Assembly (NCBI RefSeq): GCF_026210795.1
Contig: NC_089429.1
Location: 3,038,001 to 3,102,000, forward strand
DNA: 64,000 nucleotides
From: Rhizophagus irregularis
Lineage: Eukaryota
Reading direction: 5' to 3'
This document shows positions 12,748 to 64,000 of this stretch, piece by piece. Position numbers and translations under genes: made by a program. The number at the start of each line of letters is the position of its first letter. Position 1 is the first letter of the stretch. The notes under the pieces are model-generated. The model did no database searches and had not been told where the DNA came from. It saw nothing but the letters and a program-made list of their open reading frames with translations.

Positions 12748-12764
12748 GACTAGGTTATTTAGTA

Positions 12765-13746: not shown

Positions 13747-14673
13747 TTTCCAGTATGTTTTCAGGCATATTAGGATGCAAAATAGGACGGATTTTTTCTT
13801 GTTGTCGCTATGAAAATTTGTTAGTGACGCTCTTAGTGACGCTCTTAGTGACACCCCTTGTATGCTTTTTCAAAGTTTGGGGACGCTCGATTATCTTCCT
13901 TTGTATCTGTCACTATGTCACTAAGAGTCACTAAGAAAAAGTAAAGTTCTAGTAAAAAAATCGAAATTTTTCTATGCTATCCTATGGCTTATATGCGATA
14001 TAGTATGATACATATATGACATATGCGTGATACATATATGCTAAAAAAAATGAAAAAAAGTTAAGGAACTCGGACTTTTCTTAGTGACTCTTAGTGACAT
14101 GGTGACACCCATCTAGAAACCGTCCGAGAGCTCTAAAAATCTGAAATAGCTATAAATTTTGTCACCAAAAGCGTCGCCAAGGGCGTTACCAAGATTTTCT
14201 CGGTGACAGTGACATCTTTTTTCTAGTGACAAACTGTATTATTTTTGTTTACCTCTAAATTACCTACCAATATCTCCGCCGAAGCTATCTTAGCCTGCTT
14301 TTTCCGATGGTACTGTTCCTTTTTACGGTGCTTTCTAGCATGTAGATCGCAAAACCCATATCCAGAATAAGTTCGTTTACCACATTCAATGCAAGGTATA
14401 TATGAGGGAGAATTCCGATGTATTTGGCACCCTTTTGGATGGAAGCACCCCCGATTACAAACTTCTCCGGTCCTGAGAATATATGGACATCGATAAAATG
14501 TCATTTTTGATAACTATGAATAGTTCGATTATGTATCGATTTATATATTTCGGAATTAATTTTCATTTTGAACTTTTTTCTCCCGGAGTATATACTTTCT
14601 CTCGAACTGTATATTTGTTATATAATACCGCGACCCAATCCGAGCTTTCAGAGTTCCTCGACGCGCTCCGCCC
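13747..14673 (+). repeat. Left inverted repeat of element A
   Basis: Reverse complement of 49079-50005, with only a handful of substitutions or indels. Confidence 0.95.
14223..14504 (-). CDS. Small Cys/His-rich zinc-finger-like protein inside the inverted repeat
   Basis: CPYILRTGEVCNRGCFHPKGCQIH...CIECGK...CDLH plus a basic tail. Identical protein at 49247-49528; paralog at 38404-38631. Confidence 0.7.
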   Translation of the reverse strand: MTFYRCPYILRTGEVCNRGCFHPKGCQIHRNSPSYIPCIECGKRTYSGYGFCDLHARKHRKKEQYHRKKQAKIASAEILVGNLEVNKNNTVCH

Positions 14674-17600
14674 TTTTTCACCCAAAGGCTGAAAAAGATA
14701 AAACAGAAGGGGTCCCAGAGGGACCAGGCCAGGTAATCCGCTATTCCGGTGAAAAATACTTGTCGGGCATCCCAACTCGAGATAATATAGTTGCGGAAAA
14801 TGATGAGGGATTAACCGCAATCCTTGAAGACGCTCTATTCAATTGCCAAGAAATACCATTCATGGCCACTGATAATGAAGGATCCAGCCAAAAAATAAAT
14901 GGAAAGTATTGCTATGTATTACGGCTCTACGGTTCTCTCATTAATGGCCAAAAAGCGATAGTAATCCTTTTGGGAATTCAGGTTTTCTTTGACGTTCTTG
15001 TTCCAGACGGAGAGACTCCAGATGAATGTGAAATGAAAATAAGGGATATTCTCTCTGGGGAGGTGGATACTCAAAAAATTGAGCATATTAAAGCTTTCCC
15101 TTTTCGGGGTTATCATACGGAAAAAAAGACATATTTACGAATCTATATGAGTGGTACCGGTAAAGAAAAAACAGCCATTATGGCTGTTCAAGATAATAAT
15201 TACGAAACTGCTTCAGACGATTTATACTCATTCCACCGTAAGGTGGCTCGAAGAATGGAATTCAACTTTCTGGGTGGTCTATGCTGGGCAATTACATGTA
15301 CAAGAAAAGGATTGACCCTCTCTGCCCCCACACATTTTACTTATCTAAAAAATATTTTCAACCCGTTAAAGACCTTACTACGATAACTGATCGTTTCCCT
15401 ATTTCAGCACTCAGAAGGGATCGTACTGTTATCCTCACATGGGATATAGAAACGCAATCACAAGAGTTGGGTGAATTTGCCGAAGTCCTTAATCTGAAAC
15501 AAAATGTCTTTATGATTTGCATGACACTGCATTGGAAAGATGATCCAAAACCGCTAAAGCAAATATGTCTTGTCGACATTGAGACAGAACCAGATCCACG
15601 CTGGACCACAATCGTATGTGGAAACCAAGAAAATCTGCTAAAGGCATTCGCTCTCTGCTGGCGAGCATTTGCCCCTGACATCCAAGTTGGGTTTAACGAT
15701 TCAGACTACGATTGGCGTTTCATTATGGAAAGAGCCTATCATCTCAACATTCTCGAATGGATATGGGAGCGGATGACAGGAAAGTTTGAAACAAAGGAAG
15801 AAATTATAAAGTGGAAATATCGTGGAAAGATAGGAGCGAAATCCGAAAATACTTTTAAGAAGAAAGAAAAGAAAAAGAATAGTGAGGACAGAGATAGTGA
15901 AAATACTCTTCACATTCTTGAGAATGGAGAGGAGGATACGGAAGTCAAAGAATTTCTGGGCGGTCCGATTAAGATCAAAATTTCTGCAGAAGATAATTTC
16001 TTTTCCAGCTTCCTTAAACTGCCAGGATGTGTACCAATTGACGTTAGAGTTTGCCTCAAAAAGCGTTACCCCCGTTCTGAAGTCGAAAAGGAAGGCTCAC
16101 TTAAATTCTTCTTACAAAAATGCGGTCTTGACGCTAAAGTTGACATGCCATACAATAAAATGTGGAAAACCTATTCAGAGGCGAAAAAGAACCCGTCCCC
16201 ATCAACTGCAAGAAAAATGCGGGAAGTAGCATATTACTGTATTATAGATGCACTGTGTTGCCAGGAGCTTTTGGTAAAGCTAAGTCAAATAAATGAATAC
16301 AGAGAAGTCGCTTCTATAGCTTATGTATCTTTATTCGACTCACACTATCGCGCAAATGGAATGAAGGTACGAAACCTTCTAGGCGCTTATGCTTTTAAAC
16401 ATGATATGCTATTTAGCGCAAGGATACCTGAAAAGGTGGAAAAGGGTAAGTATCCAGGCGCATATGTTTTTCCACCTAAAAAAGGTATCGAGACGAAAAG
16501 GCCGGTAACGGGTTTGGATTTTAGATCTTTATATCCAAGCCTTATTATGGCCTATAACCTCTCTCCAGAAAAGTTTATATTTAATCCAGAGGAGGCTGTC
16601 ATTATAAAAAAGAATGGGAACAGTTTACACGAGATTAGCTTTCCATTCAATAAGCGCACTATTCAAGCTTGGTGCGTAAGACATGATAATCGATCTGAGA
16701 AGAAAGGTTTATACCCGACCGTATTAGAGGAATTATTTGCGATGAGACAAGAACTTAAAGCGCAACTTGCCTCATTAGGAAAGAAGAAGGATCAACTTGG
16801 AAAGATAATAAGTTCGGTGAAAGAAAAGGGTAAAAGAATTCCTGAGAAGTTAGATTTAGAATATAAATCTCTTTGCTTCGAATATGACTGCTTGAATTCA
16901 AAGCAGAAAGCTGTCAAGCTATTTATGAATACCTTTTATGGAGAGGCCGGAAACCCATTATCTTCAATCTTTCTCCGTGCATTGGCCGGGGAGGACCACT
17001 TCCGCTGGCAAATACAATATCAAACTTGTTGCAGAATATGTGGAAAAGAAAGGCTTTGGAACCAAATATGGGGATACTGATTCTTTGTATCTTACCTGCC
17101 CAGATAAGTATTTTGAAAAATGCGATGAAGCCTTCTTCTCAGAAAAGAACTATCCAAAGAAGCGTACTGGACCGAAATGGTCAAAATTACTATGGATGTG
17201 ATGAAAAAGTTGCGCGATCAGATAAATGCTTATCTTAGGATAAAAAGTGGGACCTCTTATCTAAAAATGGCTTACGAAGAGGTATTATTTCCCGTCTGCT
17301 TTACTGGCAAAAAGAAGTACTTTGGAGTCGGGCATGAAGATGTAGTAAACTTTAAACCGAAAACCCTTTTCATGAAAGGGATAGAAACTGTAAAGCAAGG
17401 TAAATCCCAGCTTCTCAAATTCATCGGAGAGAAAATTATGAGAGAGGCTATGGATATTAATAATACACGCTCAATTCACGATATTGTTGAAGCTACTCTT
17501 AGAGAAGCCCAGAACAAGGAATGGGATTTCAATGATTTTATCGTAATGGGTACATGGAAGCCTAAGAAAAAAAATCTCTGCAACAATCGCTTTATGGAAC

Positions 17601-17959
17601 GTATGAGGGAGAGAAATAAGAGGATTCCCGATCCCGGCGAACGCTTTAGCTATGTCGTTGTGAAGGGTCCCCGTCTTCGCAATGAGAAAGGCCGGTTAAT
17701 ACCGGTTAGAGTTGGAGATTATATGGAGTATGCGGACATAGCAAAAGAGAAAAACATGGAAATAGATATCAATTATTATTTAGGCACTACGGTTGGAATG
17801 TGCGCACGCTTTATCAATGAGGATGATAGATACCAACCACCAGCTTCACATAAAATTATGCAACTTAAAGATTCGGATGAAAAGGAAAAGCAGACCGACA
17901 AATATTCCCAGGATGAGGCAATAAAATGGCTTAAAAAATATATAAAAGACTTACAATAA
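14630..17959 (+). pseudogene. Family B DNA polymerase (RNA-primed, asfarvirus/NCLDV-like), split by frameshifts
   Basis: ExoI WDIET, ExoII GFNDSDYDW, ExoIII YCIIDA; polymerase motifs [29 protein letters not shown]. Spread over ORFs 14568-15386, 15281-17080, 16938-17201 and 17177-17959; no introns. Confidence 0.9.
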
Positions 17960-18510
17960 AATTTCTAGGTATTTCGATGATTCGTCCGAAGCCGATATAG
18001 ACGATATTATCGAATTATATGGTTAAGTATTCTAGCGGAGGTGTGGCAATTTCAGCTAAGAATACTTAGCCGTTAAGGCACTTCGTACAATATTATTTGT
18101 ATATTTTTTCTCGTGTAATAATACTGGCTAACTTCAATTCCTATATTCGATCTAGTCACGAGGTGATGAGATGGTCGGCGTTACAAATTGTAACGCGCAC
18201 GTGACTGACCTCTTCCGGCCTCCGATCATATATCCCGACCTCAGATATGTCTGGAGATAATCATTAGTATTTTGCATATTAAAGTTTACGATCAGCCGAA
18301 AATCTGCATATTTTAAACATAGTCTTTATTGGTATAATGGCCGAACTACGTGACCAAGTTTCCCAGTACATAGGATTCGAACCCAACAAAATCTATCTCC
18401 CGATCACAGAAGAGGATAGATGGGTGTTTCGTAAAATAATAGCAGATCAGGAGGGAATGGCAGATATCGTAATGGACGACTATCGATATTTACTACAACA
18501 CGGTAGTCGA

Positions 18511-19557
18511 CTAGGATTTGAGATGATAAATATCTGGCCTATTTCTATATTTTTTGTAGGTGAAGTATCGGTCACTTTCTTTCGGCTTGGCGCTCCACAT
18601 ATTCCATATTTTTTTCCCGACCACGAGCCATATAATTGCAATCAGTAGTAAGGTAAGTATGGAATATATTAACATAGGCGACATTAAGGAGTCCGCAACA
18701 ATAGGAATAGCCGGTACTAGAGGTATTGCTTGGGCTGATGATACCATTTCCGCACCACTTGCAGAAATAATTTGGGATGAATCATTCATAGGCGGGAGTG
18801 GAAGGGATATTTCATTATTTTCCTTCAATTCTAACTGGTCCCCGAAGGACCTATTTTCCTCCCTTAATTTTGATCGCGCTGAATACAAAGCATCTATTTC
18901 CCGTCTAAATATGCTATTTGATGACTCTATTCCCTTTTCCATACATTCTATTGTATATTCTTTCGAATTACGGTCTTCCTTTACTCGTTCCAATTCAAGC
19001 CTAAGAGAATCAATCTCTTTAAGATCGGATGAGCTTATTTGGGCTGGCTCTTCTACCACCCCTCCCGTTGCATCCAAATCATGATATGTACGCTCTAGAT
19101 CTATGTCCTCCAACTTACCTTCCAATTCGCGTATTTTAGTTTCAAGAGAAAGAATCTGGACCTTGTCAGCGGACGAAGCTTTCTGGGCCAAAGTCGCCTT
19201 TCTCTTCAGTGTTTTAATCTCTGATTTGAGCAATTTGATTTCGGCAGTATATTTGGCTTCAAGCTCACGTTGTCTCTCAGAATGAGACTTTCGTTCGGAA
19301 ATAAGTTGGGATCCAACCTTAGTACTGGACGCAATTAACTGGCTAGTTTTATTTACAATATCGGCATAGGATCGTTGAAATTCCTCCTCTCGCTCTGAAT
19401 ACTCTGAATTTTCGGCCTGCAACTTTTCGTTGAAATCAGTAATTTCAGAGTTAAAATCGATAGCAATTTTTAATTTTTTTTCGAGCTCTTGCTCATATGT
19501 ACTACCCAGCCGATGTCCTCTATCTTTTATATCCTTCAATGTATGTACATTGGACAT
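18511..19557 (-). CDS. Coiled-coil protein with a C-terminal transmembrane helix
   Basis: 348-aa ORF with a heptad-rich body and the hydrophobic segment MLIYSILTLLLIAIIWLVV followed by GKK. Confidence 0.7.
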   Translation of the reverse strand: MSNVHTLKDIKDRGHRLGSTYEQELEKKLKIAIDFNSEITDFNEKLQAENSEYSEREEEFQRSYADIVNKTSQLIASSTKVGSQLISERKSHSERQRELEAKYTAEIKLLKSEIKTLKRKATLAQKASSADKVQILSLETKIRELEGKLEDIDLERTYHDLDATGGVVEEPAQISSSDLKEIDSLRLELERVKEDRNSKEYTIECMEKGIESSNSIFRREIDALYSARSKLREENRSFGDQLELKENNEISLPLPPMNDSSQIISASGAEMVSSAQAIPLVPAIPIVADSLMSPMLIYSILTLLLIAIIWLVVGKKIWNMWSAKPKESDRYFTYKKYRNRPDIYHLKS

Positions 19558-19814
19558 AATCTTGGCATGGTTATATAGCAGGAAAAAAAAATATGTTGCA
19601 TTTTTTTTGAGACCACGTAGTCCCGAAATTTCAGAAGCACTTTATTTTTTCTATATATCGATACATATTGGTGGGCATTGAAATATATCAATAATATATT
19701 GAAAATTATTAATACGTATTGAAAAATATTGAAAAATATTGATATGCACATATTGATACGCATTGATATTTATTGAATAGTATTAATATTTTTAGTATAT
19801 ATAATCCAGTAAAG

Positions 19815-20423
19815 ATGGTAGCCCGTATCCATGATACATATTATGATGCTAAGGCAACCCTGTTATCAGAAGCCGACATCAAGGAAATTAGAGAATCCAG
19901 AGGTAGGATACCCAATGCAACACAAAAAATGGCTAGTAAATTTCATATCGGACCTAAGCGTGTTTATGAAATATGGGATAACAAAGAACGCCTTCAGCAA
20001 GGGGTGGTCCCAGAGGGAGTAGTTATTTCATCTTCCTCCGGTCAGCCTGTTTTGGACGAGAATTCCCAGACTGATAAGATAGAACAGACTGAGTCAAATA
20101 TACATGGCCAAAATACATCCCCCTTTGCAGAACTGGAAAAAAATATACGTGATGCTAAGGTTGAGTCTAGCAAATCTACCGATTCAGCTTTAGAAAAAGG
20201 AGGCAGTAAGGCGAAAAAGACTGGAGGAAAGAAATCGAAGTCCAAGTCCACGTTAGTAGAGCTAACACCATCTAGTATTCAGACTCAGCCAATCCAGACT
20301 TCAAAGAAGGATATAAATAATGTAAATTTGGATGCATCATATGAGAAGATGGTCGAAAAAAGCACAAAAATCGTAGATGAAAAAAAGAAGCGTTATACTG
20401 AAAATAACTCGCCTATCCCCTAA
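19815..20423 (+). CDS. Putative HTH DNA-binding protein with a low-complexity tail
   Basis: IKEIRESRG...TQKMASKFHIGPKRVYEIW resembles a helix-turn-helix. Confidence 0.5.
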   Translation: MVARIHDTYYDAKATLLSEADIKEIRESRGRIPNATQKMASKFHIGPKRVYEIWDNKERLQQGVVPEGVVISSSSGQPVLDENSQTDKIEQTESNIHGQNTSPFAELEKNIRDAKVESSKSTDSALEKGGSKAKKTGGKKSKSKSTLVELTPSSIQTQPIQTSKKDINNVNLDASYEKMVEKSTKIVDEKKKRYTENNSPIP

Positions 20424-21314
20424 GAAGACTTTCGCAAAACTCATTGATTTCCGCATTAAATTTGAGAGTAATGAAAAGCTTCTTCTCAAGCTCTTTCACG
20501 CGAATTGCCATATCCTCATAACTCACTTTTTTTTTTAATGTGTCCTCCTCACTCAAGTCCTGCAAGTCATGTGAAATACAGTCCGGAGCTGGCAGATCAT
20601 CACATTCGGGAGTAGTCCTCGCGTAATTCACCTCGAGCTTGTTCTTAACCTTATGCATAGTGACTGGGATAATATAATCTTTTCCATTAAAAGGAATCTT
20701 TAGCTCATTTGTATTCCAGTCCACTGCGCACCCATATTTCTTTAGGAGTTGGTTAGAAAATATTAGCGTTGACTTATGATAGTCTACAACTATAAAATCT
20801 TCATGAATAGGTGAGTCCAGGAGCTAAAGTAATTGGCAAATTGCGGGCGACACCAATAGATTCAATCGGGACAGTAGCTACACCGCTAAGGTCGTGTTTT
20901 TCAGATTCATCTATTTTAGCCTTAACACGAACAACAATATTCTTTGTTATAATTGGAGGCTCTGCTCTGGAGTCAAGAGTCATGGCTGGAATCTTTAAGC
21001 GTTTGATTTTGCACTTCACAGTAGCAACACTCGTTTTCGGCTCCTTCTTCTTGACGAAATCGATCTCCATAGGACCATCTAAAAACTCCTCCTCTTGACT
21101 AGACTCATCCGAAAATAAATCGTTGGAAGATGCCGATGTGTCATTTTGGCCGGAGACCGCGCTCCATAGGAGCCACTATCTGTTCGGACATAACGGGACT
21201 AGAGTCTTTGGAGAAACGTTCAGGAAAAAATAATTTAAGCTCACTTAGGAGGACTTTACGAATAGTTTCATCTAGCGGAATTTCTCTCGACATAGTGCTA
21301 GACTTCTTCTTCAC
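20413..21314 (-). pseudogene. Retropepsin-like aspartyl protease region of a Gag-Pro polyprotein
   Basis: PMEID linker, TLDSRAEPPII (DSG-like active site with G to R), LSGVATVPIESIG flap, and LIFSNQLLKKYGCAVDW after a frameshift near 20805. Confidence 0.75.
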
Positions 21315-23789
21315 TTTTTTTTTGACTTAGATATATGAACATCAAGAATACCATCAGAATCAGAAGAATCAGAAGAACTTGTATCAGAATCGGAACTATC
21401 GCTAGAAGAAGTACTGTCTGAAGAGGAATCTGAATCTGGTTCTATAGCGAGATTGACCTTACCTTTCTTCGACTTCTTGCTTTTCTTTTTCTTCTTTACA
21501 GAGCACTTACGAGAAGTGTGTCCAAATCTACCACACTTGGTACATTTTTTCTTAACGGCACTTTTAACGGCGGATTTGATAGCATTTATTGTGGCACTAT
21601 TTAGTGTCATGCCGGCCATACTGTCAGTAATATCATCCACAGGGTCATAATTATAATCATCTTCAGGTTGCTTATTTGATTTTGTCCTTAGAAGTTCACT
21701 TAAAAATCGTCTAATAATAAGGTCTTCCCCTCTCTTATTGGCCGATTTTTTACTATTATCTAGAGTCTTAGTTCCTCGGAGACAAAGTCTCTTGAAAGGA
21801 TTTAGCTATAGCTTCTTGTAAATCAGCCTTAGTGATATTTTCCTGGCCAGAAGAAGACACCGGTGATAGATTTGGCGCCGATTGTTGTAACGCCTGAATC
21901 CTACTATTTACAATCCTATCAATATCTTCTGTAGTAATATTTTGATGGGAAGGCGCTTTTGATTTTGTCTTAGTGGCCGGCTGGTTATAAATATCTTCGC
22001 CCAAAAGTAAATCATTCCTTGCTGTTTCAATCTCTTCCAGTGTCTCAATCAAATCATCGTTCAAAGGTCTGTTTAAACCCAGTCGTTTCATTTCTAACTT
22101 GTTTTCAGGAGACAAACCACGTAAAAATTGTATTCTTTTTTCACGATCGGATATTCGAGCCCAGCCAGCATATTTATCTATCTTTCTATAGAAATTTCTA
22201 ACTGAATCAGATCCTTGAGTCAAAGTACCAAAGATCAATTCCTGTTGCTCTCGAACAACTGTAGGATAATTCCTTTTAAACCAATAGATGACCTGACTAA
22301 TATTGATATCAGGAAGGACTATATGATTGTTGTTATTTAAAGCTCCATTCGGGGCATTGGTTGCTGTACCAGCATCGACAGGACACCCACCAGCAAGAGA
22401 CCAATCTTCATCTGCGTGAACATTATGTGCTGGGATAACTGTAGCGCCAGTAGCTCCAGCTGGCAATCCTGGTGGTGGAGTACCATCAGGCGCATTAATC
22501 ATGGCGGCCGTTATGTTAGCATTATTTAGGGCCACTACGGCGGCCATATTTGCTAAAGCATTCCCACATCTTACATGATTCAATCGCCATTTTTTACCTT
22601 TAAGCTTATCTTCAGCCCAACGTGATGCCTCATCTGTCAAGCAGGACCAGAATAGCTCTAAAGCTCTCTGTTTACCACCCGCATTAGCAGTAGTGATATT
22701 GGCCGCCGTAAGATAGAGTCTGTAATCTTTTATGAATTCATCTATATCTTCATCCGCTCTACCTGAGAATCTTTTTGGTGCATATCCTGCCATCCTTAAA
22801 TGTTGAAGATTATTTTGTAATGCGAATATTTGTCCTTGCAAATTTAAATTATTCTGGCGTTCTGCTTGGGTCTTATTTTTCCATTTCTCATATCGCTCAT
22901 ATAACCTGTCTCGATTAAATTCTAACAGACCTATATTCCCTCTACTTTGCTGTAAGTGGTGGGCATTTCGCTGATACAATAATTGTAAGGCAAATTTTTC
23001 TTGTATCAGTACACCTATACGGGTTTGCTTTCTTGCTATATTAGCTATCATTCTATTTATCTGGTTTTGAGCATTGGTCCGCAACTGATGGAGATCACCA
23101 ATAACATTAGCCATCCCACCTTCAGCAAGATCTCTTCGCGTAATAGCAAGATCTCGCTCACCTTCTCGCATCATAGCGCCTTCTTTGCTCACGGACTAAA
23201 TCCTGATGCAAATTATTCTCTTTTCGACGTATCTGCCTTGTCGCCCTTTTTATTTGGTCTATTAGAATATCTCTGCTCGTTGTCCTATTATTTAGATAAC
23301 CATCTATAGCATTTGCTAGCTCTGCGATTGCGCCATATTATCATCGGAATTATACAAGTCCGGAGAATTACCTCTTTCCGGTAAATTTTTTCGTGATGAG
23401 ATAGTCCTGATCCGGCATCGCAATTTCTTTACCTGCTCCTCGGAATCTACTAACAGACTCTCTATACTAGAAATATGTTTTTCATTATCACGAATATCCT
23501 TCTTAGCTTGATATAGTTGCTTTTTTAGGCTGGAGATTTCGGATTTTAGCTCTGCTATCTCCTCTTTCGAAGCATTCTCAAGACGTTCTATCTCACCGTT
23601 AAGAGTTTGGATTTCTTGTTCACAATGGACACATTCACGTTCCAGCTCCCTGATCTGCTTTTCATTTTGGCAGTTATTATCAACTTCTGCTTGCAATTCA
23701 CTACGAAGATGGTAGTTCTCCTCCTTCAGCTCAGCTTTATATTCTTCACATGTTCTTCTCTGCCTTGGATGGGGCCTCCGAAATGCCAT
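21311..23789 (-). pseudogene. Gag-like protein: coiled coil, retrotransposon capsid domain, CCHC zinc knuckle
   Basis: PKRFSGRADEDIDEFIKDY...LTDEASRW; MHR-like LTQGSDSVRNFYRKI...QFLRGL; knuckle CTKCGRFGHTSRKC. Pieces at 23316-23789, 21768-23192 and 21311-21640. Confidence 0.8.
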
Positions 23790-23819
23790 TCTTTTTTGTG
23801 ATTATAAAAGAGAATCAGA

Positions 23820-25463: not shown

Positions 25464-25529
25464 GTCGCATGATTTGGGAAACAATGTTCGGACATTTTAT
25501 AGTATATAGTAATTCAGCGACCCATCACA

Positions 25530-43559: not shown

Positions 43560-43626
43560 TTTACTAATAGAGCAATTATACTTAATAAAAAATAAAGTAC
43601 TGGCAGCGTGCATAGCTTCTTTTCAG

Positions 43627-50365: not shown

Positions 50366-50465
50366 AGGTAAATTAGTAGGTAAGCCCCTAGAAGGTCTAT
50401 AGAGCCAGTAAGACCAACCCCGTTCTGCCCCCGTCAGAAAAAATAAGTAATTGAACAATGGGTAT
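50366..50465 (+). repeat. Visible part of the left TIR of element B
   Basis: aggtaaattagtaggtaagcccctagaagg...gaacaatgggtat is the reverse complement of 63898-64000 apart from one small indel. Confidence 0.95.
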
Positions 50466-50504
50466 TGAGAATAGAGCATAACAAGATAAGTTTAGAAGAC
50501 AGTA

Positions 50505-50825: not shown

Positions 50826-50869
50826 TTTAAGATTTGAAGTCTAAAACCATTCCTTTAATTTGTTGTAAT

Positions 50870-51962: not shown

Positions 51963-51987
51963 AAAAAATAGAAGAATTAAAGGGTCT

Positions 51988-54930: not shown

Positions 54931-54961
54931 AGTATTTAAACTAAGTTAGAATAAAATTCAA

Positions 54962-55821
54962 ATGGATCTTTATGTATACAATTTGGATGAGTACACGACC
55001 GACTCAAGACAAGGCAATGAGTTTGCTCCATCATGGCCCTTTCGATTAGCCGTAGCAGGTAGCTCAGACTCAGGTAAGACAACTATGATCATTAATTTGT
55101 TAATGGGTGACAAGAAAGCAAAGGAGAATGGTAATCGGTATGTACTATGTGATGCAGTACTTTTAGTTGGCAGATATCTTGACGAGCCAAAGTGGGCAGT
55201 TGTACATGATTTTTCGAAGAGGAGAAGATCCCATTCACTGCAGTAACCCATAGTGAGATTCCAGAGATTGACTCCTTCGACCCTACTCAAGCTACTGTGG
55301 TAATCTTCGAGGATCTGATGGATGCACCTAAAAAAATCCAGGATCTTATCACTGGTTACTTTACACATGGACGACACAAAAATATTTCATGTATTTATGT
55401 AGCTCAAAGATTCTTTGCCATTCCTAAGGCTATTCGAGAAAATGTTAACTACATCTCACTGCATGGAGGTCATGGGAGCCTTACAGATACTAAGAGAATC
55501 ATTCGCCTATATACAGAAGAATCAGAGTCATTAGCACCAGTAATTGATGATCTTACTTTGCAACGTGAATTTGTAGTGTTTGATCTTAGACGGTCTCCCA
55601 AAAGTGATCCACTGTCCATTCGAGTAAGATGGGATACTAGTCTCAGTTCGATCACAGAGCAATCTCAGTTCAATCCTAGTTCAATCTCAGTTCAATCTCA
55701 GTTTGATCCAAGTTTGAACCCAGTTCGATCTCAGTCTGAACCCAGTTCAATCACAGTTCGATCCAAGTTTAGTCCCTATGGTCAGAAAGCTGTATCTGAA
55801 GCAAAAAAGGTGGACACTTGA
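54962..55821 (+). pseudogene. A32-like packaging ATPase (frameshifted)
   Basis: PFRLAVAGSSDSGKT, VIFEDL, HGRHKNISCIYVAQ, PKAIRENVNY, IRVRWD. Clearly homologous to 25530-26274. Confidence 0.85.
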
Positions 55822-56186
55822 TTGAATTTGCTCGGGTATTTCCATCCCCTAAAGAGCGTCAACATTTACTTGTACCTGGTGTCTTAGCCAAGAATACAGA
55901 TACCTGGATTAAATTTGTCTTTCGGGAAGCTTATGGACTCTCTGGTAAGACCCTAGGAGCTGACTTTCAGGACTTCTTAGCAAAAGTACAGGGTAGGACT
56001 GCAAAGACTGAAACTCTGAAAACTGAGAATGTGAAGGAGTTATTCTCCCGATATGAAGCCCTGAAGTCTAGTCGCCCTCTGGATAATAAAAAAATAATAG
56101 AAGGTATTGAAGTCCTTCTACAGATCTTTTCTAAGAGCCACATGGACCGTCGAGCATTACAAGTAGGGATTAATAGTATCTTGTGA
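55818..56186 (+). CDS. Hypothetical protein (possibly a C-terminal extension of the ATPase)
   Basis: 122-aa ORF overlapping the ATPase stop. Confidence 0.4.
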   Translation: MIEFARVFPSPKERQHLLVPGVLAKNTDTWIKFVFREAYGLSGKTLGADFQDFLAKVQGRTAKTETLKTENVKELFSRYEALKSSRPLDNKKIIEGIEVLLQIFSKSHMDRRALQVGINSIL

Positions 56187-56541
56187 GAATATCAAGTAAT
56201 TCGTCTGCAGAAGCTCTAAGAATCATAGCACTTTTTTTACGGCCTTCAAAGTCAATCCTTAACATCTTAGCCTTCAACCCTATTGCTCCTAAAGCACGAG
56301 AAGCAAAGTTCTTAGTCATTGGATTACTTATACGATTTACATAGTTCTCATAGAATGTAGTGAAAGGCTCGTCAATACCATCTGGATATGTATCTCTTAG
56401 AAATTGATATAAAGCAATTTCTCCACTGTCACAACCTATGGCTATAAGCTGTTCGAGAAGCCACTTCCTAATATCTTCATATGGCTCTCCATCCATAATT
56501 TTCATATCCAGTCTTTGTGTAAACAATTGTGTAAAGTCCAC
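56170..56541 (-). CDS. Small winged-helix-like protein resembling the helicase C-terminal domain
   Basis: FTTFYENY...PMTKNFASRALGAIGLKAK parallels VQEFYRVY...PLSKINASRILSNELGINSR in 61453-62283. Confidence 0.55.
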   Translation of the reverse strand: MDFTQLFTQRLDMKIMDGEPYEDIRKWLLEQLIAIGCDSGEIALYQFLRDTYPDGIDEPFTTFYENYVNRISNPMTKNFASRALGAIGLKAKMLRIDFEGRKKSAMILRASADELLDILTRYY

Positions 56542-56776
56542 ATTACTTCCCCCGACGAATGATCTGAACTAACTTATTCCTAGCAAGTCCCAAGGCTTGT
56601 AGAGGGTCATTCTCATTACTAATCTTCTTTATAATCTGTCTGTATAACACGCTGGATAATCCTCTATGTGCTGTTTTTGGAGTGATTACTCCACAGTTTT
56701 GGCACTGGTTTATTACGATTGATGTTGACATGGCTATCTTTCTTTATGTAAAAAAGAATTATTCAAAATTAAGTAA

Positions 56777-57358
56777 CTATTCGGAGCAGTCCTTGCACAA
56801 CTTGTCCGTTAAGTCATTTGGGCTTACAGGCATGAGACATTCCCTACACAACTCAATATTAAGCTCTGCAAGTCTCGGGGTATGGTCCTCCAAAGTTCGT
56901 GGATGACCGGAAGGACCAGAGGAAGGTGTTCCGTTAGTCGTATCTTGCTGTAAGATAAAATCATCATATTCATCTTGGTCAGCCTGAATAGCGGCCCTGA
57001 TTTGTTGTATATCATTGAAAGTTAACCGCTGCCCATCAAGATTTTCCTCATTATAGCGTGTTTCATTGATGATTTCCTCTATAAGCGCCTCTTCTTCATA
57101 ATGGACAAGGTAGTAATCCTCAACTACCTCATAGTCACTCTCAATCAGTCTATGATATGTTCTAGTACCACGTCGAACATAACGTCCTGTATCTGTATTT
57201 AAATATACAGGTTGCTCTTCAGGTGGAGGTGCAGTTTGTCTACGGACAAGCCTTCCATCAATATAATCATGGGATTCCATAACTATTCGATTAAAGGTAT
57301 CTCCACCGATAATAATTGGACGTCCAGTTATAGGGTTAGCTATATAAGGGTAAGACAT
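56777..57358 (-). CDS. Protein with two NxxTGRxI motifs and a C-terminal CxxC-CxxC
   Basis: NPITGRPIIIGG, NTDTGRYVRRG, CREC...CKDC. Confidence 0.6.
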   Translation of the reverse strand: MSYPYIANPITGRPIIIGGDTFNRIVMESHDYIDGRLVRRQTAPPPEEQPVYLNTDTGRYVRRGTRTYHRLIESDYEVVEDYYLVHYEEEALIEEIINETRYNEENLDGQRLTFNDIQQIRAAIQADQDEYDDFILQQDTTNGTPSSGPSGHPRTLEDHTPRLAELNIELCRECLMPVSPNDLTDKLCKDCSE

Positions 57359-57419
57359 GTCTTTTTTCTGTATGTGTCTACATACCTAATAGTTTTCTTC
57401 AATTTACAATAACCAAGTG

Positions 57420-57630
57420 ACATGGTCATCAGTCCTTGTCGAAAAAAAATGCAAGGATACCTGATGATAAAGTTACATGGTCATCAATCCTTGTCAAAAA
57501 AATGCAAGGATACCTGATGATAAGGTTACATGGTCATCAATCCTTGTCGAAAAAATTCAAGGATACCTGATGATAAGGTTACATGGTCATCAGTCCTTGT
57601 CAAGAAATATGAGGATACCCGATAAATAAG
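57420..57630. repeat. Four tandem ~53-55-bp units, each with an internal inverted repeat
   Basis: acatggtcatca(g/a)tccttgtc(A-run)tgcaaggatacctgatgataaggtt, four copies, the last degenerate. Confidence 0.9.
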
Positions 57631-58048
57631 CTACTCCTGTTGAGTCCATTCATTCCACTTCCAGTCCAGTCTCCAAGGATCGCCTCCCCATCTTTGTTCA
57701 CTTAATGCATGCTCTATGGTTTCCCTCTCTTGGGGGTCCACGACCATCCCATTCCTAAGCATTTTCTCCATAATATAAAGCTGATCCTCGGTGAGGCGGT
57801 CTATCCATCTTTTATAGAAGTCGTTTACATCTTCAAATGATATCCAGTCAATATTCCCTTTTTCAAACGGCTTTCCAAGAGCTTGGACATGCCCAATTGT
57901 AGTAGCGTAATTTTTCCATCTCTTATATGCTTCTTGACGAACTTCCCTGCCACCACACACTATCTACTTTACTCGCTGCAATAAGGTCAGTATCTGGGAT
58001 CTTTGCAACAATGCGTTCGACTATTTCTACTGGTAATCGGTCCAACAT
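57631..58048 (-). pseudogene. F-box protein (one frameshift near 57946)
   Basis: From ATG 58048: MLDRLPVEIVERIVAKIPDTDLIAASKVDSVWWQ, then EVRQEAYKRWK in the ORF-track frame. This fits the F-box LP.EI...I...L...V...W pattern. Confidence 0.7.
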
Positions 58049-58142
58049 GATGTTATGTTACTTATACTATAGCCATCTTCAATTACTGTATGCCCATTAC
58101 AAATGGATAAAAAATATAAACTAAATTCGTACAGGGAGCCGC

Positions 58143-58611
58143 TTATGCAAGAAGTTCTGCTAAGGTTTTCTCAGCCTCGTTTTTAGTAATAGCTCGCTTT
58201 GGGGGACCGGTTGATGAGTCCTTAGTCGCATTATAATACAATTCGAAGAGGGCCTCAAGTTTGTCTAAAAGAGCTTGTTTATTCTTGTATGATTCACGAA
58301 TCTTTGCTATCTTAGCAGTATATGCTGCATTATCTGGGAAGAGTTTTCTGGCCACGAACTTCACATATGATACAGGAGAATTTGCCGTCTGGATTCGCTT
58401 GATATACTTCACATGATCCTGGACAAGGTAGCTGGTTTTGCTAAACCCAGATACTAATGCGACTACTATAGTGTCTTTCAATGCACGGATAATGCGAGGA
58501 CAGTTTCATCGAGACAATGGTGAACTGATTGTGCGATGCATCATAAATAACTTTATCACTAATGCTGTCAGTGCTGTTAATAATGCTTGCTAATTCGGTA
58601 TATGTTGACAT
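58143..58611 (-). pseudogene. Hypothetical protein (frameshifted)
   Basis: MSTYTELASII... from 58611 joins ORF 58143-58481 after an indel. Confidence 0.4.
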
Positions 58612-58723
58612 GATTCCTTATACTTTTTTGTACTTTGTAATAAATAGGAATCTTCAAATTGACTTTACATTCAAGCAGAAAAAATATATATACCTACTGT
58701 AAATCCAACCGCATTCTTGGCAA

Positions 58724-60606
58724 TCATGTCCAGATAACCTTGTTTGCATTTTTCACATGGCAGTATCCTGCGGTTTCAAACTTGAGAGCTTTCAATGCTT
58801 TGGATGCATTTTCTGGACAAGTGATAAGTGTAGGACTACTCGGCTGTTCCTCTAGAATAAATCCATCTGTATGGATGCGTCGTACTTTATCCTTATATGG
58901 TTCTAATAACTCTGAAGTCGTCTTCCGTCCATGTGCTAATAAGAATGGAGCGATCCTAGGATACTCACCCTTGAAGGGACTACCTGGGTTTGTGAACTGG
59001 AATCGCCACTGGTCAGATCCTACTGGTACGATGGAGTCAAGTGTGTGGCCTTCTGGAAACTTGAATGGATCTGTTTGATCTGTGGTGAGTGTCTTGTAAT
59101 TGCGTTTCCTCTGGCAGAGTGCTTCCCCATAGTGTATTGAGAACTCTCTTTGCAACACGACCGGCCACGCCACCCTGGTTCTTTATATTGAAGAGAAAGT
59201 GGACATACTCACCAAATATTACAGTCCCAGGAATTCTTGCTTCTCTGTCATATATCAAGGCATTTGGCTTTCCATCCTGGATTAACTGTATATCGAGTCC
59301 AAGTTTCTTTGCTCGTTGTAAGTCAATGAATGTATAGACTCCCCTCTTATTCTGTCGGAAGAGAATGTCATTACCACTTACCTTGCCCTTGGGCGCTCCT
59401 GGGAGCTAGCACGAAATAATCCATACAAGGCATAACCTCTATGGTCTACAAAGTCTTTGAGTATTTGAAACTTACCTTGTCGGATTGGAAAGTTTGCATT
59501 TGATTGCTGAATACTTGGATACAAACTTGTCACGTCGTATTGCCTTCCATAGCCCTTCCATTCATTGTCTGCCCAGATAAGACCTCCCATCATTGCATCA
59601 CTTATCCACTCTGCTTCGACTGGGTCAAGAGGATCATTGGCTGGAACCCCTACACTAAACCGTTCAAAAAGCCAGAGTGCAGTTCTCTTGTACGACCAGT
59701 TGTGGTAAGATAAGTCGATTCCTAGACCGAACTTCTTTGTAGCCTGTAGGAAGGAATCCCGCTCTTCATGGATCCTCTGGTATGTTTCCTCAAGTGTTTC
59801 ATATATTCCAGTTTTACAATTCTTCTCGATAGGGATGAAGGAGTAACTATCAGAGTTCTTACCTTTCTGAAACTGTCCAACTGTAAGAGACTTAACTGTC
59901 TTACCATTGTATATTGTTACTACATTATTAACCCCATCTTCACGATAAACAAAGGGAGACTTTTGTTTTCTATCTAATTTGCTAGGGTGGAGTCTTCCGG
60001 GATTCAGTGCAAGAGAGTAGTGGCCTTCAGACAGGATAAGTGTTGCACGTCTGTCAGATTTGCTCTTGGAAATTCGAGTGGAATCCCCTACAATATTAAG
60101 TGCAAGGCTTCCTGCAAGTTGTTCAACCTTATCCATATATGAGACTGGAACTGGAGCATCACGATTGAGACCTAATGCCTTTTTGATATACTCGGGCTTT
60201 TTGATTGACTTTGGCATTTTAGAGAATGTGCCGTAGATATATTTCAGGCATTCATACAGGCAATCATTTAGCTCCCCGTTGCAACCCCCTGCAACCGGTG
60301 GGGCATCTCTCACATAAATTATGAATCGTTCAAAATAATCAGGGTCCTGCATCATCCGGTAGTCATGGCTTCGTCGTAAGGGTCCAAGAGTGAGAAGAGG
60401 CTGGCTGGTTGGTTTCCTGATGTCCATCCACCGGGTTTCCAGTTTTCATAGGGAAGCAGAATCTGAAATTTATGTGTCGGATACCGGGATTGGAGTTGCT
60501 GTCCAAGTCTGGCAATAGCTCCTCTAGAAAATCTTGCGCCTGAATACTGTAGTTCTTTGATATCTGGTCTTGTAGGCAAAGCACGTGCAATTTTTGAATA
60601 GGCCAT
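58724..60606 (-). pseudogene. Compact protein-primed-type family B polymerase with an N-terminal OTU-like Cys/His motif
   Basis: GGLIW...QYDVTSLYPS (motif A), AKRVLNTLWG (B), IAPFLLAHGR, RIHTDGF (C variant); upstream NDCLYECL...LSEGHYS. Split over four ORFs. Confidence 0.75.
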
Positions 60607-60689
60607 TTGATATAACTATGAATTGTATTCAATTGTAATATAGGTTTTTTATATAAAAAATATAAGATAACTAAGAGGCGCTTATCTTA

Positions 60690-63286
60690 TTAAAAGGAGT
60701 CAATCATATCACAGGCCTCATCAATATCCAGCTCGTCTACAAATCCATTAGCGGCTTCCCATTCACGTTCCATATCAGTTTTTGGACGTTCCTCTGGGAT
60801 TTCTCGTGCCTTACCCTTATTCATCTTCATAGTTTCATAACCGGAGGTGGTAGGGATAATCTCGGCATCATGATCCTCCTTATATGCTCTTATTAGATCT
60901 GCGAGTTCTTTACGGCTAGGTGTTTTAGGTAAGTACCCATTATATTCTATCCAGTCCTGAAGCGGTCTACTACCTCCCTAAGGTAGTACTGGTACTCGTC
61001 CTCAATACGTGTTGTGGGACATTCCTCTACTTCAAACGCGAGTATTTCCCAGTCATAGTTGTCTGACACGTCTTGGTACTTAGCCCATAAATCCTTACCT
61101 GTATTGTGGAGATCATTGAAGACCTGGTCCTTTGAATTCTTGACCCATGGCTTACGATCCCATCGGTGCCTTTCATGCCAAGCCCAGTGTGCTCGAGTAC
61201 CTTCCTTTGGTTCAGGGGTCCCAGTCAACTTCTAGTTCTGTGTCGGGTTCTGGGATAGGTTGCTCTTTAGGAGCCGGTTCGGGTCAGGCTTAGTGACAGA
61301 TGCAGAAAATTCTGCGGGAGGCTCGGGTTGTTCTTCGGGAGCCGGTTCTGGGTCAGGCTTAGTGACAGATGCAGAAAATTCTGCGGGAGACTCGGGTTGT
61401 TGTTCAGGAGCTGGGTTCACAGTTGTAAAATCTGAGTCAGATAGCAAGTCATCTAAGACGTCATAGTCATCAACAGCTTTAAGTGCAGGTTCTTCAGCAG
61501 GCGGCTCATCTTCTTGATCAGGTTCCTCATCGATAGATAACAGTCTGAGAAGCTATCTATAGGTTCATCAGTATCTGACTTTATAGGAGCTGGAGATTCC
61601 TCAGGAATAGGATCCTCATTGATGACAGGTGCGGGTTTTACCTTCAAGCAATCGGGCTTAAGTGGTACTGGTGGTGGAGTCTTTTTGGTCTCTTCAGTAG
61701 GCTTCTTCTTGACAGGAGCGGGTTTTTCCTCAGCAGGTTTCTCTTGTACGTCTTGTGGATTATTAGCAGGAATGCTATATATATTTGCCAAGAACTTTTC
61801 TAAGGCTTTGGGATCAGATGCGGGCTTCTCGGGAGTTTCTACATCTATTCCTTCTATATTGATTTCATCTGTTTCGTGGATCCATTTTTTGGTGAGAAAC
61901 TTTTTGTAAAGGTCCTCCCTAGATATGCTGTAAACTCGTGGTGTTGTCTTACCTACACGTATTTTTCTGCTATTTATACCCAACTCATTTGATAGGATTC
62001 TAGAAGCGTTTATCTTTGATAGGGGTGTAATGCAATGAGTTTCACAGTATGAAGTATATACCCTATAAAATTCTTGAACAGGTAGGTCGGTTATATGATT
62101 TTTTACTATGAGGTAAATGTCCTTTATGAATTGAAATAGGGGTGGGAGAGTTGATATGATGTGATCCTGCTTAGATGTTGTCATAGGTGGTGGATTCCCA
62201 TTGAAGTCTGGGTAAGCGTCTGCAATGGCTCTCGTTGTAAGCATAGAATGCCTCACTGGCACCTGGGTATTTGATAGCGTCACTGAGTTTTTTTAAAGTA
62301 GTTGAGGTCTTCCCTTGCGGGATGGTGACACATCCAAGAACACTGTGCGCCTATCATCATTATCCACTCTGAGAGCATTTTGTTGGTTAGGACGATAGTA
62401 GACATAAAGTTTTTATAATGTGTTGGTGTCTTGTATTTTTCATGGATTTCCATTATGTCACTCGTTACCTTATCCTTTAAAGAGCGATACAGATTATTCC
62501 ACTGGCTTTTTTCCGTGGGCATTTCCTCGAGAAGAAGAAGAATCTTACCCTGTAATTGCCCATTGAAACTTCCACGAATCGTCTCAGGATCGCTGGTCTT
62601 ATAAACGAGTTGAGTGCCTAGGACGCTGCGCTGAATGAAATCTGTTATAATGCCTTTGCCCCAACCCTGTCCAGATTTCAGGTAAAGGATCGAATACATT
62701 TTCCTTCCAGCTGCCACACCGGCCAACCACTTTATGATATACTCAGTAAGATTCCAATCGCCTGAACACCAGATATCCTGAATGTGGGAGAAGATAAATT
62801 TAACCGCGAGGTGGGTTGTAGATTCAAAAGTGGATATCGGACGCAGGATATGGAGGAATCCTGGAAAGATATTGAGATAAAGTTGGCCACCTAGTTTAAA
62901 GATACGGGATTTTTGAGGGTCACAGGTAGCTACACATACAGTACTATATTCGATCATAAACCATTTGTTGATATTAAATTCAACCTTTTGTGAAGGACCC
63001 TGTTCAGATTGTGTGTAAAAGACTTTGGTAATTGGACGGATAAGTTTATTAATATTTTTATCAGGGATGTGCTCGAGGTTTTTGATTTCTGATCGCCACA
63101 TGAAGACTCCATGTGGGTTGGAGCAGAGGGGATAAAGTAACTGCAAAGATAACCTTTAGCTTGATTGAGATCCCTCATATTCTTTGCAGCGTTAATGAGC
63201 CGTTTAAGCTCATCAATACTAAAAGCCTTCTTCTGTTCACCGAACTTGGGGATAACTTGAGCTTGAGTGCTAGTTTGGGCAGTCAT
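60690..63286 (-). pseudogene. D5-like SF3 helicase, winged helix and Pro/Glu-rich tail; no AEP domain visible
   Basis: YLNIFPGF, IWCSG, SGQGWGKG (Walker A), LLLLEEM (Walker B), VLTN (sensor). Internal direct repeat PAEFSASVTKPD twice at ~61270-61410. Confidence 0.8.
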
Positions 63287-63507
63287 TTTTTGTTCTATCA
63301 AATCGAGTACTAATTTATAGTTACCTAATCTTCAATTGCCGAATATTTTTCCAAAGATCTGCACTCCTACCAATTTACCCTCCTGTAGTCCTATGGTCCT
63401 GCGATTCTGCGGTCCTCTGGTTATATCTGGTTATCTTCTAGGGGTAAAAAAAAAAACTATAAACCACGAACCTTTACGACTGCTCTAAATCTTCCCTTCC
63501 CCCTTTT

Positions 63508-63868
63508 TCAAACTACATATATCTGAAATCCAAACCGCTCAAGAGCTCCTTTTACTATAGTTAGCTTTTTTCTAGTGTCCGTTAACTCTTTACAAGCCTT
63601 TTGATACGCCTTCCATTCAAGTTCACGGAGGGTACCCTCCTCCTCCAATGATTGGCCAAGAGCATCGTTTGCTTTTTCCTTCTTTTCTACTGCCCTGTCG
63701 TATGCCTCCTCGGCTTTTTTATGCCGCTTCCAGAGTACTCGTTCAGCTTCGGCTTTCCAGATTGGGCTGACTTCTAAAAGACGTGGCCCGAAATTGCTAC
63801 TTCGGAATGTGTTCCAGGATATGGCCTACAAGTTCAGGAATTACTGATACTGCGTGCGGGGTATACAT
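63508..63868 (-). pseudogene. Second F-box-like protein with a helical C-terminus (one frameshift near 63801; absent from the ORF track)
   Basis: MYTPHAVSVIPELVGHILEHIP / SSNFGPRLLEVSPIWKAEAERVLWKR..., open to the TGA at 63510-63508. Confidence 0.55.
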
Positions 63869-63897
63869 GTTATCTGTCCTTATAGGTTACTTATGGT

Positions 63898-64000
63898 ATA
63901 CCCATTGTTCAATTACTTATTTTTTCTGACGGGGGCAGAACGGGGTTGGTCTTACTGGCTCTAGTACCGACCTTCTAGGGGCTTACCTACTAATTTACCT
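63898..64000 (-). repeat. Visible part of the right TIR of element B (continues past the window end)
   Basis: Reverse complement of 50366-50465. Confidence 0.95.

Follow-up and report, generated by a model that had tools for sequence, protein, structure and literature searches.

The 64,000-nucleotide stretch of Rhizophagus irregularis DNA considered here (the window; contig NC_089429.1, positions 3,038,001 to 3,102,000 of the forward strand) holds two mobile elements, A and B, with visible extents of ~36 kb and ~14 kb. They are multi-copy, integrase-bearing, Polinton-like elements of arbuscular mycorrhizal fungi, with a retroviral-type gag-pro block where Polintons carry jelly-roll capsid genes. 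That this architecture defines a true family of elements we regard as very nearly certain.

The original prediction, made from the letters of the window alone, had placed an rve integrase, an A32-type ATPase, a family B DNA polymerase (PolB), an SF3 helicase, a Gag and a protease between the inverted repeats of each element, had called the two highly divergent, and had stressed that one gag-pro module accompanies two kinds of polymerase. Pfam searches, frame maps and homology agree on each of these points. Element A matches PF00136, PF03104, zf-CCHC, rve, Pox_A32, DUF5906, Pox_D5 and, weakly, Retrotrans_gag; element B matches Asp_protease_2, Pox_A32, DUF5906, an integrase with Chromo and, weakly, Retrotrans_gag and DNA_pol_B_2. 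The genes that they have in common are distant orthologues, with identities of 32% for Gag (over 271 aa, E 1e-36), 42-45% for the ATPase, 34% for the helicase and ~26% for the integrase, while the PolB is asfarvirus-like in A and of an organellar/viral type in B.

A scan of soil metagenomes with the Gag alignment as bait returned 20 loci. In all nine with at least 900 bp upstream of gag, a Polinton gene lies head-to-head with it: the ATPase in seven and, in the order seen in A, the integrase in two. Downstream, where eight loci extend for at least 1,400 bp, the protease is present in every one of the eight and a convergent integrase comes next in seven; the ends of the protease and integrase open reading frames (ORFs) are 30-56 bp apart in the four loci measured, which leaves no room for a reverse transcriptase (RT). 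One contig (L013) links helicase, PolB, ATPase and gag, an overlapping relative (L012) runs from the ATPase on to DUF5679, and their gene set is that of B. The RT motif is absent from all 246 Gag homologues and RT Pfam families from the 41 that were scanned, and neither RT nor RNase H is matched (Pfam) in 65 long and 91 short ORFs of the element regions. No long terminal repeats (LTRs) surround the gag-pro blocks, the longest flank match being 14 nt in A and 10 nt in B, with none in a self-BLAST. The ratio dN/dS lies between 0.09 and 0.44 in 14 of 15 computable comparisons of gag, its insert (0.13 and 0.21 alone; see below), protease, integrase and ATPase, one ATPase pair being saturated; judged by these ratios, gag, protease and ATPase are under purifying selection. 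Gag and integrase distances are correlated (rho 0.76, p 0.04, n=6), A-type Gags going with A-type integrases and B-type with B-type. The Gag family comprises 406 representatives at 50% identity. Named homologues of both Gags are all from Glomeromycota (Rhizophagus, Funneliformis, Dentiscutata, Glomus, Paraglomus), and those of the ATPase from Rhizophagus and Diversispora; scans of IMG/VR with a few exact patterns, a weak test, returned no relative of Gag, the ATPase or the B-type PolB.

Gag, its protease and the packaging-type ATPase

The genes of the integrase-ATPase-gag-pro block lie in the window as follows.

A, 20413-21313, minus strand: retropepsin-like protease ORF, following gag in the -1 frame and indel-broken here (frame map, homology to L007)
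A, 21311-21325, minus strand: slippery site A_AAA_AAG right before the gag stop
A, 21311-23801, minus strand: Gag (predicted fold, zf-CCHC)
A, 23808-25463, plus strand: rve integrase with all D-D-E residues and, at its C-terminus, an endonuclease-like domain (PF00665, E 2e-8)
A, 25503-26274, plus strand: A32-like FtsK/HerA packaging-type ATPase (PF04665; family model)
B, 50831-51930, plus strand: rve integrase with chromodomain, convergent with the protease (Chromo, E 2e-8)
B, 51990-52730, minus strand: retropepsin ORF with motif ADTCA, following gag in the -1 frame (PF13650, E 6e-9)
B, 52728-52740, minus strand: slippery site A_AAA_AAG right before the gag stop
B, 52728-54154, minus strand: Gag, its capsid region (CA) with the same insert as in A and no zinc knuckle seen
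B, 54133-54945, minus strand: coiled-coil ORF, overlapping with the start of gag; in A the corresponding coiled coil is part of Gag itself
B, 54950-56186, plus strand: A32-like ATPase with a helical C-terminal extension (PF04665; L012 orthologue, E 2e-11; model)

The claim that Gag is capsid-like holds up in two kinds of fold search. An AlphaFold model from a 32-sequence alignment (pLDDT 81.8) has PEG10 and HIV-1 CA in its top Foldseek rows (E 0.006-0.06, none reaching E 0.001), and in the VIA search, which is independent of Foldseek, every one of the 35 matches at Z of at least 5 is to a CA protein of retroviral, retrotransposon or domesticated origin. The best VIA match is PEG10 (Z 11.6, rmsd 2.0 over 85 residues); those to copia, Arc and HERV-K align over both CA domains, and the best match in a viral library is ORF1 of a fungal metavirus (E 0.04). 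By its predicted structure, Gag of the A/B family is a true capsid-fold protein, which fold searching was required to place: phmmer against PDB sequences gave nothing real. In A it comprises an N-terminal coiled coil, the CA N-terminal domain (NTD), the CA C-terminal domain (CTD), a CCHC knuckle and a Lys-rich and Ser/Asp-rich tail. Throughout the family an Asn/Gly/Ala-rich insert of ~100 residues separates helices 3 and 4 of the NTD; sequence comparison makes the Gags of A and B, with this insert in common, orthologues. The cyclophilin-loop region of HIV CA faces outward, and by analogy the insert is likely to face the outer side of a shell.

In both elements gag ends with A_AAA_AAG and then a stop, and the protease follows in the -1 frame. 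This conserved gag-pro frameshift is an addition to what had been noted earlier. In 13 of the 19 gag ends examined the stop is preceded by an in-frame A_AAA_AAN; beyond it the -1 frame stays open for 217-302 codons in nine, to the end of the contig in two and for 51-57 codons before a break in the two window copies, and the +1 frame is open for at most 8 codons in all 13. The six ends without the pattern are three premature stops, two contig ends and one locus (L019) taken up below. Two adjacent lysines within the last nine residues are a feature of 37 of the 57 long Gag homologues and of 1 among 120 ATPases taken as controls, and public contigs have a longer in-frame A run at the slippery site of B (52728-52740). 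Retroviruses make much Gag and little protease, the ratio that suits a structural protein and its maturation enzyme, and ribosomal or transcriptional slippage alike would be expected to give that ratio here. As for the enzyme itself, PF13650 is matched in B and in L007. The A protease has no Pfam match; it aligns weakly with that of B (E 0.005) and better with the Pfam-positive protease of L007 (E 2.5e-13), and its motif reads LDSRA, as against LDSGA in a homologue (P0010). In the comparison of Gag and protease distances the short proteases were misaligned (identities 0.07-0.15). A U_UUA_AAC-like slippery site between the coiled-coil ORF and gag of B is put down to chance, as it is not found at the same junction in seven relatives.

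For the model of an intact B-type ATPase (pLDDT 81.1), fold comparison gives E 1e-8 with packaging ATPases of the A32, virophage, adintovirus and IVa2 kinds, and Z 12.5 with the STIV2 packaging NTPase B204 among its matches in the FtsK/HerA family; together with PF04665, these matches identify the packaging-type ATPase characteristic of Polintoviricetes. Here too fold searching was required, the profile having missed among PDB sequences. Walker A reads GSSDSGKT in 110 of 120 homologues, and 114 have a GRH-type arginine motif. A passage in Krupovic et al. (PMC4028283) describes nine Polintons that lack a capsid and, with it, protease and ATPase. Since capsid-less Polintons tend to lose the ATPase, its retention beside gag suggests a continuing virion role, and this is our main argument for Gag having taken over the role of the capsid. 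The other Polinton hallmark of the block, the rve integrase, is matched by PF00665 with its D-D-E residues in A, L012 and L002; its C-terminal part varies, being endonuclease-like in A (24960-25463; phrog_559, E 1e-17), a chromodomain in B-type elements (rve and Chromo also in L012) and neither of these in L002.

The original prediction had recognised no RT, RNase H, LTR, double jelly-roll major capsid protein (MCP), penton or adenain, and profile searches of the element ORFs agree with it: no double jelly-roll capsid match and no LTR or RT remnant at the gag-pro blocks came to light. The third result named there as refuting, a majority of family copies without gag-pro, did not appear either, in loci gathered with Gag as bait. 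The ORFs already scanned for RT have no Pfam match to jelly-roll, penton or adenain families, and PHROGs (44 proteins) and NCBIfam (35 proteins) yield no capsid match. Between the repeats of B no unassigned gap exceeds 273 bp and the other ORFs are of at most 202 aa; a double jelly roll is larger than that, so B has no room for one. In A there is no capsid match in Pfam, PHROGs or NCBIfam, by profile search only and with 29% of the element having no assigned gene. Pentons and adenain-type cysteine proteases have no profile match in A or B, the small ORFs having been searched by profile only.

Replicases, cargo and element ends

The remaining genes and the repeats are the following.

A, 14520-17959, plus strand: RNA-primed PolB, asfarvirus-like, in four frame pieces (PF00136/PF03104)
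A, 18511-19641, minus strand: coiled-coil protein whose C-terminus has one hydrophobic segment, likely a membrane segment (Kyte-Doolittle 19-residue maximum 2.83)
A, 39647-42165, minus strand: cargo, Crinkler N-terminal domains and kinase (PF20147, E 5e-29 and 3e-10; Pkinase, E 6e-17)
A, 42762-43622, minus strand: second protein with a Gag CA CTD-like domain (29% over 83 aa to B Gag, E 2e-7)
A, 46047-49274, minus strand: AEP primase (C962R-like), SF3 helicase and D5 C-terminal domain (Atlas; DUF5906, Pox_D5)
B, 50505-50840, minus strand: DUF5679 small zinc-ribbon-type protein (PF18930, E 4e-17)
B, 56170-58505, minus strand: small ORFs (132, 202, 110 and 120 aa), a 2C_adapt motif occurring in one
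B, 58724-60686, minus strand: PolB of organellar/viral (likely protein-primed) type (weak PF03175; phrog_1907)
B, 60693-63331, minus strand: SF3 helicase, no primase domain seen (DUF5906, E 4e-16; L013 orthologue)
13072-13746: probable outer part of the left terminal repeat of A (boundary suggested by depth; may extend further left)
13747-14673: left arm of the A inverted repeat, 929 bp, 98.9% to 49079-50005
49079-50005: right arm of the A inverted repeat, probably interrupted by B
50006-50365: probable outer part of the left terminal repeat of B (from depth; the matching arm would fall beyond the window)
50366-50465: visible left part of the B inverted repeat, 97% to 63898-64000
63898-64000: right arm of the B inverted repeat, 103 bp, cut by the window edge

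The best PDB match of the A PolB is 8ywg (E 1e-113, against 5e-14 for Pol delta), an entry cited in a paper on the structure of the polymerase of African swine fever virus (ASFV), as far as its available text goes. A quick tree, in which A fills only 34% of the columns and has a long branch, groups it (SH-aLRT 98) with three PolBs of ~1,200 aa from viral genomes of 184-191 kb and with one giant-virus bin. The ORF at 48126-49121 encodes a C962R-like AEP primase (Atlas score 0.98; AEP_C962R clusters, mostly Nucleocytoviricota). A has an RNA-primed polymerase of the PF00136 type with its own primase, not the protein-primed PolB of Polintons. For the PolB of B, weak matches to PF03175 (DNA_pol_B_2; E 9e-4, and 1.8e-6 in the intact relative L013) and phrog_1907 are accompanied by a motif C of the form HTDG and by no match in the PDB. 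A third polymerase end adjoins an A-type integrase and gag in L002; it has no Pfam match, and from its motifs we take it to be the C-terminus of a classic Polinton PolB. We infer that the integrase-ATPase-gag-pro block is a stable core and that the replicase is exchangeable. Genes of A resembling those of nucleocytoplasmic large DNA viruses are confined to the PolB and the primase-helicase, and the ~36 kb of the element compare with more than 100 kb for a genome with the core set of MCP, RNA polymerase, capping enzyme and VLTF3; among 36 viral loci around related PolBs, none has another gene in common with the elements.

ASFV-related polymerases of R. irregularis have been named 'fundsbetaviruses' in Gong et al. 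2020 (PMC7017919), and the available text of Zhao et al. 2023 (PMC10640383) gives 15-33 asfarvirus-like polB copies per Rhizophagus genome, at strain-specific positions that were read as repeated infections, and no MCP in five R. irregularis genomes, with query profiles among which Polinton capsids are not listed. It is likely that these scattered copies are transposition products of A-type elements, which would offer a simpler reading of them.

The coiled-coil protein at 18511-19641 lies just downstream of the A gag-pro genes; its Atlas matches are coiled-coil look-alikes only, all below 0.9, and one Gag homologue (P0039) ends in a similar hydrophobic segment. The neighbourhood of gag and such a protein may be conserved in A-type elements. 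Besides the Crinkler-type kinase, the cargo of A includes a P-loop NTPase at 31443-33745 (weak NB-ARC). The second Gag-CTD-like ORF is flanked by 101-bp direct repeats of 96% identity (42664-42764 and 43627-43727) and looks like the arrival of a small cassette. Both repeat arms of A contain a small Cys/His-rich ORF (14226-14513 and 49238-49525), with a similar-looking one in the cargo region (38407-38631). A possible tyrosine-recombinase motif noticed by eye at 44888-45361 has no match among Pfam, PHROGs and NCBIfam profiles. The DUF5679 protein adjoins the integrase in L009, L012 and L018 as it does in B, which also has a 53-bp tandem repeat at 57389-57607; a weak Retrotran_gag_2 match at 50160-50351 (E 0.0065) is treated as noise. 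In B-type relatives an F-box protein adjoins the ATPase (464-1012 in L011, by Pfam; 678-1229 in L012 and 6256-6807 in L013, by eye), possibly a host-manipulation gene.

The terminal inverted repeats typical of Polintons/Mavericks are thus present, at 929 bp (98.9%) in A and 103 visible bp (97%) in B. As true ends, the coordinates first assigned to the elements have not stood up, since both are probably wider. At 13072-13746 the depth is that of the A interior (687 in X7, against ~28 for the host gene described below), and one X1 contig (depth 480.5) with changes at 13426-13451 also covers polB at 15383-18144. Contigs from four public runs together span 48500-64000, with every one of the 30 bins covered; their summed depth rises at bin 50051-50567, and high-depth variants occur at 50130 and 50357 in the four runs, so that the 360 bp between the right arm of A and the visible repeat of B would belong to B. 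No target-site duplication, which in Polintons is of 5-6 bp, is visible at 13747/50005, the true ends being probably elsewhere and partly beyond the window. The simplest reading is that B has probably inserted into the right repeat of A, the other side of which lies beyond the window, and this would account for the missing duplication. Contig depths in X7 are 25-28 for the host gene, 240-810 for A and 1,900-3,600 for B; contig depth is not equal to copy number, and both families are clearly multi-copy. One public run that resembles RNA (X17) may be DNA and is not counted as evidence of expression. Many ORFs are broken by 1-nt indels; as public contigs differ at several of these sites, the breaks probably reflect read errors or are peculiar to this copy. 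B (50400-63900) is depleted in CpG, with an observed/expected ratio of 0.60 as compared with 0.89 in the host gene and 0.87-0.94 in A; this would fit a longer exposure of B to host methylation.

The left of the window is AT-rich host DNA; from ~13 kb onward the GC content steps to 33-45%. The single-copy depth reference is an intron-containing host gene for a phage-type (mitochondrial) RNA polymerase at 5722-10527 (PF00940, E 7e-191; domain part 8560-10527). A very high-copy AT-rich repeat without a long ORF occupies 11581-13070 and abuts the probable left end of A. Its left boundary at 11581 is sharp, X7 showing 63 loose ends there, and it contains a perfect hairpin of 27-bp arms at 12694-12747. 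Farther left are a fold-back element resembling a miniature inverted-repeat transposable element (789-1229; 149-bp arms, 92% complementary, 15 bp apart) and a unit of ~99 bp, itself partly palindromic, repeated four times in tandem (2938-3375).

A proposed DNA-carrying Gag particle and its alternatives

On balance we lean toward the view, drawn from gene content and conservation, that Gag builds a particle carrying the element's own DNA. A free linear copy would be replicated DNA-to-DNA by the element's PolB and SF3 helicase, with protein priming from the repeats in B and priming by the AEP primase in A. A minority of ribosomes would slip by -1 on the A run before the gag stop to yield Gag-Pro, with Gag in excess of protease as in retroviruses; Gag would then assemble a shell, with the insert probably on its outer face, and the protease would mature it. 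The A32 ATPase would drive or assist the loading of DNA, the fallback being co-assembly of DNA with the basic tail of Gag. By way of the particle, DNA and integrase would reach a second nucleus in the multinucleate hypha, where the element would integrate. Active loading by the ATPase is the weakest step, and we think it rather doubtful.

Several observations weigh against this proposal. To our knowledge, retroviral CA lattices have no portal vertex at which a motor could act. The B-type Gag shows no zinc knuckle. Walker B, usually DD or DE, is an atypical FED in 111 of the 120 ATPase homologues, so the ATPase may have changed function. No strong RNA fold and no stimulatory stem-loop follows the gag slippery site (dG -4.5 to -12.7 over 70 nt), and slippage by the transcribing polymerase could therefore yield the same Gag-Pro product. 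The soil loci were all found with Gag as bait and include near-duplicates (L009/L011 and L012/L013/L014). In L019, slippery site and protease are both missing and a convergent SF3 helicase comes directly after gag; this locus is a deleted derivative or belongs to a different subfamily. One near-identical gag pair has a dN/dS of 0.82. The congruence of Gag and ATPase that had been proposed as a check is seen for the deep A/B split and is not supported at fine scale (rho 0.65, p 0.11, n=6): the correlations are driven by that split and support it only. A jelly-roll capsid, finally, is less fully excluded for A than for B, several ORFs of 350-520 aa in A having been searched by profile only.

Among the alternatives the most serious, though we consider it unlikely, is that Gag particles hold element RNA or proteins, or only shield an integrase-DNA complex, the ATPase serving DNA segregation or end processing without touching the shell. 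Gag normally binds RNA, and that of A keeps its CCHC knuckle; the atypical Walker B and the fact that no portal-like protein was identified fit as well. But packaged RNA could not regenerate the element without an RT. In lineages whose Gags are 30-60% identical the ATPase gene is still placed head-to-head with gag or a single gene away; among viral folds, packaging ATPases come closest to its product. Less probable again is that gag-pro is cargo, conserved for some function outside a virion, such as dominant-negative restriction of the host's LTR retrotransposons or of a co-infecting giant virus, in elements that spread capsid-less or in the particles of a helper virus. Domesticated Gags (PEG10, MOAP1, Arc and the Ty1-derived Drt2) are among the top fold matches, A carries other cargo and the second CA-CTD protein, and its asfarvirus-like replicase points to past contact with such a virus; yet a restriction factor would need no conserved -1 frameshift to an intact protease, no fixed place in the compact 14-kb B and no ATPase partner.

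Polinton capsids are often missed by sequence search, and the ATPase might work with a divergent jelly roll that has gone unrecognised among the ORFs of A or is supplied in trans by other copies. Two A ORFs, of 372 and 516 aa, were searched by profile only, and Polinton capsid profiles are absent from the query list in the available text of Zhao et al. (PMC10640383). The limits already given for the unassigned ORFs and gaps of B, the B-like gene set of L012 and L013 and the finding of no capsid family match in Pfam or PHROGs nonetheless make this quite improbable. Hardly credible at all is that the gag-pro blocks are LTR retrotransposon remnants inserted by chance into two ordinary Polintons, even in a host genus described in a passage of PMC8647823 as rich in Gypsy elements. 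The original prediction had argued against chance insertion, and rightly: the Gags are orthologous with a common insert, the flank matches are of 14 and 10 nt, there is no room for an RT, the same order recurs in independent soil contigs, and selection is purifying. Synteny and selection have already refuted this explanation, unless the Gag family should be found mainly inside RT-bearing LTR elements.

Comparison with known systems

Virus megataxonomy rests on capsid folds tied to packaging systems, the A32-type ATPase going with the jelly roll and Gag with reverse transcription; we know of no virus family that pairs a Gag shell with a DNA-packaging-type ATPase and a DNA polymerase. If the DNA-carrying particle is real, the ATPase was kept while the shell was swapped for Gag-Pro, which would break the capsid-packaging rule and mean that a CA lattice can carry polymerase-made DNA; the A/B family would be categorically new if Gag particles hold DNA. 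Tentatively, these may be viruses of a new class, in which linear double-stranded DNA (dsDNA), copied from DNA to DNA, is pumped into a Gag shell by an A32 ATPase and the shell is matured by the protease; the replication and packaging of Varidnaviria would thereby be combined with the capsid module of Ortervirales. This would be a dsDNA virus lineage of fungi that swaps replicases, one of them from asfarviruses. No dsDNA virus of fungi is known, according to a passage in Zhao et al. 2023 (PMC10640383), and the family is a concrete target in the search for one. The Crinkler-type genes of A raise the possibility that the elements move effector-like cargo in a major plant symbiont.

Parts of this picture are on record. 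Glomus Polintons and a Maverick expansion in Glomerales are described in passages of PMC11296320, PMC11952901 and PMC8647823, and the expanded Mavericks are probably the A/B family. Glomus and Rhizophagus A32 ATPases lie near those of Maverick-Polintons in the available part of Bellas et al. (bioRxiv 10.64898/2026.06.19.733378). In Starrett et al. 2021 (PMC8502044) the legend of Fig. 5 has 'Matrix/Capsid/NC/Pro' and 'S3H' among maps of elements with adintovirus-like PolB, labels that denote Gag-like, retropepsin and D5-like helicase genes, and the legend of Fig. 3 names Rhizophagus. The Fig. 5 element, known from its legend only, is probably a B-like Rhizophagus element; the text, as available, gives no family, frameshift, ATPase link or second polymerase type. 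Where Gag was looked for together with dsDNA, a packaging ATPase and retropepsin, nothing but Starrett et al. and the preprint came up, and full-text searches, which left most subscription journals outside, found no paper describing a Gag-carrying Polinton family; the available parts of PMC5751038 and bioRxiv 10.1101/2025.06.16.659975 hold nothing further on one. Of the hybrid class originally proposed, therefore, the fixation of Gag in the family and its association with several polymerases stand, and the novelty is somewhat lower than was assumed, given the known Glomus Polintons and the Gag and retropepsin labels of that legend.

With Polintons/Mavericks (Polintoviricetes; for adintoviruses, the available text of Starrett et al. 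2021, PMC8502044) the elements share terminal inverted repeats, rve integrase, A32/FtsK ATPase and PolB, a size of 14-36 kb, many genomic copies and, in B, an integrase with chromodomain. They differ in having gag-pro in place of double jelly-roll capsid, penton and adenain, none of which was detected, and A also in its RNA-primed asfarvirus-like PolB and AEP primase. B is like a Polinton but has no jelly roll to place it in Polintoviricetes, and A departs from Polintons in its polymerase as well. With Ortervirales (Metaviridae Ty3/gypsy, Pseudoviridae and Retroviridae) they share the two-domain CA fold, retropepsin, the -1 slippery gag-pro arrangement and, in A, the CCHC knuckle. Unlike Ortervirales, neither element has RT, RNase H or LTRs, the integrase has a gene of its own on the other strand, CA has its 100-residue insert, and the genome is predicted from the genes to be replicated by a DNA polymerase; the lack of RT and LTRs places both A and B outside that order. 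The ASFV-related polB copies of Rhizophagus ('fundsbetaviruses' among them), as far as the published text goes, resemble A in their PolB and in that no MCP was found; they have been read as giant-virus traces, whereas the PolB of A sits inside a repeat-bounded, integrase-bearing element of 36 kb. The domesticated Gag capsids Arc, PEG10 and PNMA2, which have the CA fold without an RT and are top structural matches, are single host genes that package RNA, whereas the Gag of A and B is one product of a mobile DNA element that also encodes a replicase and an ATPase.

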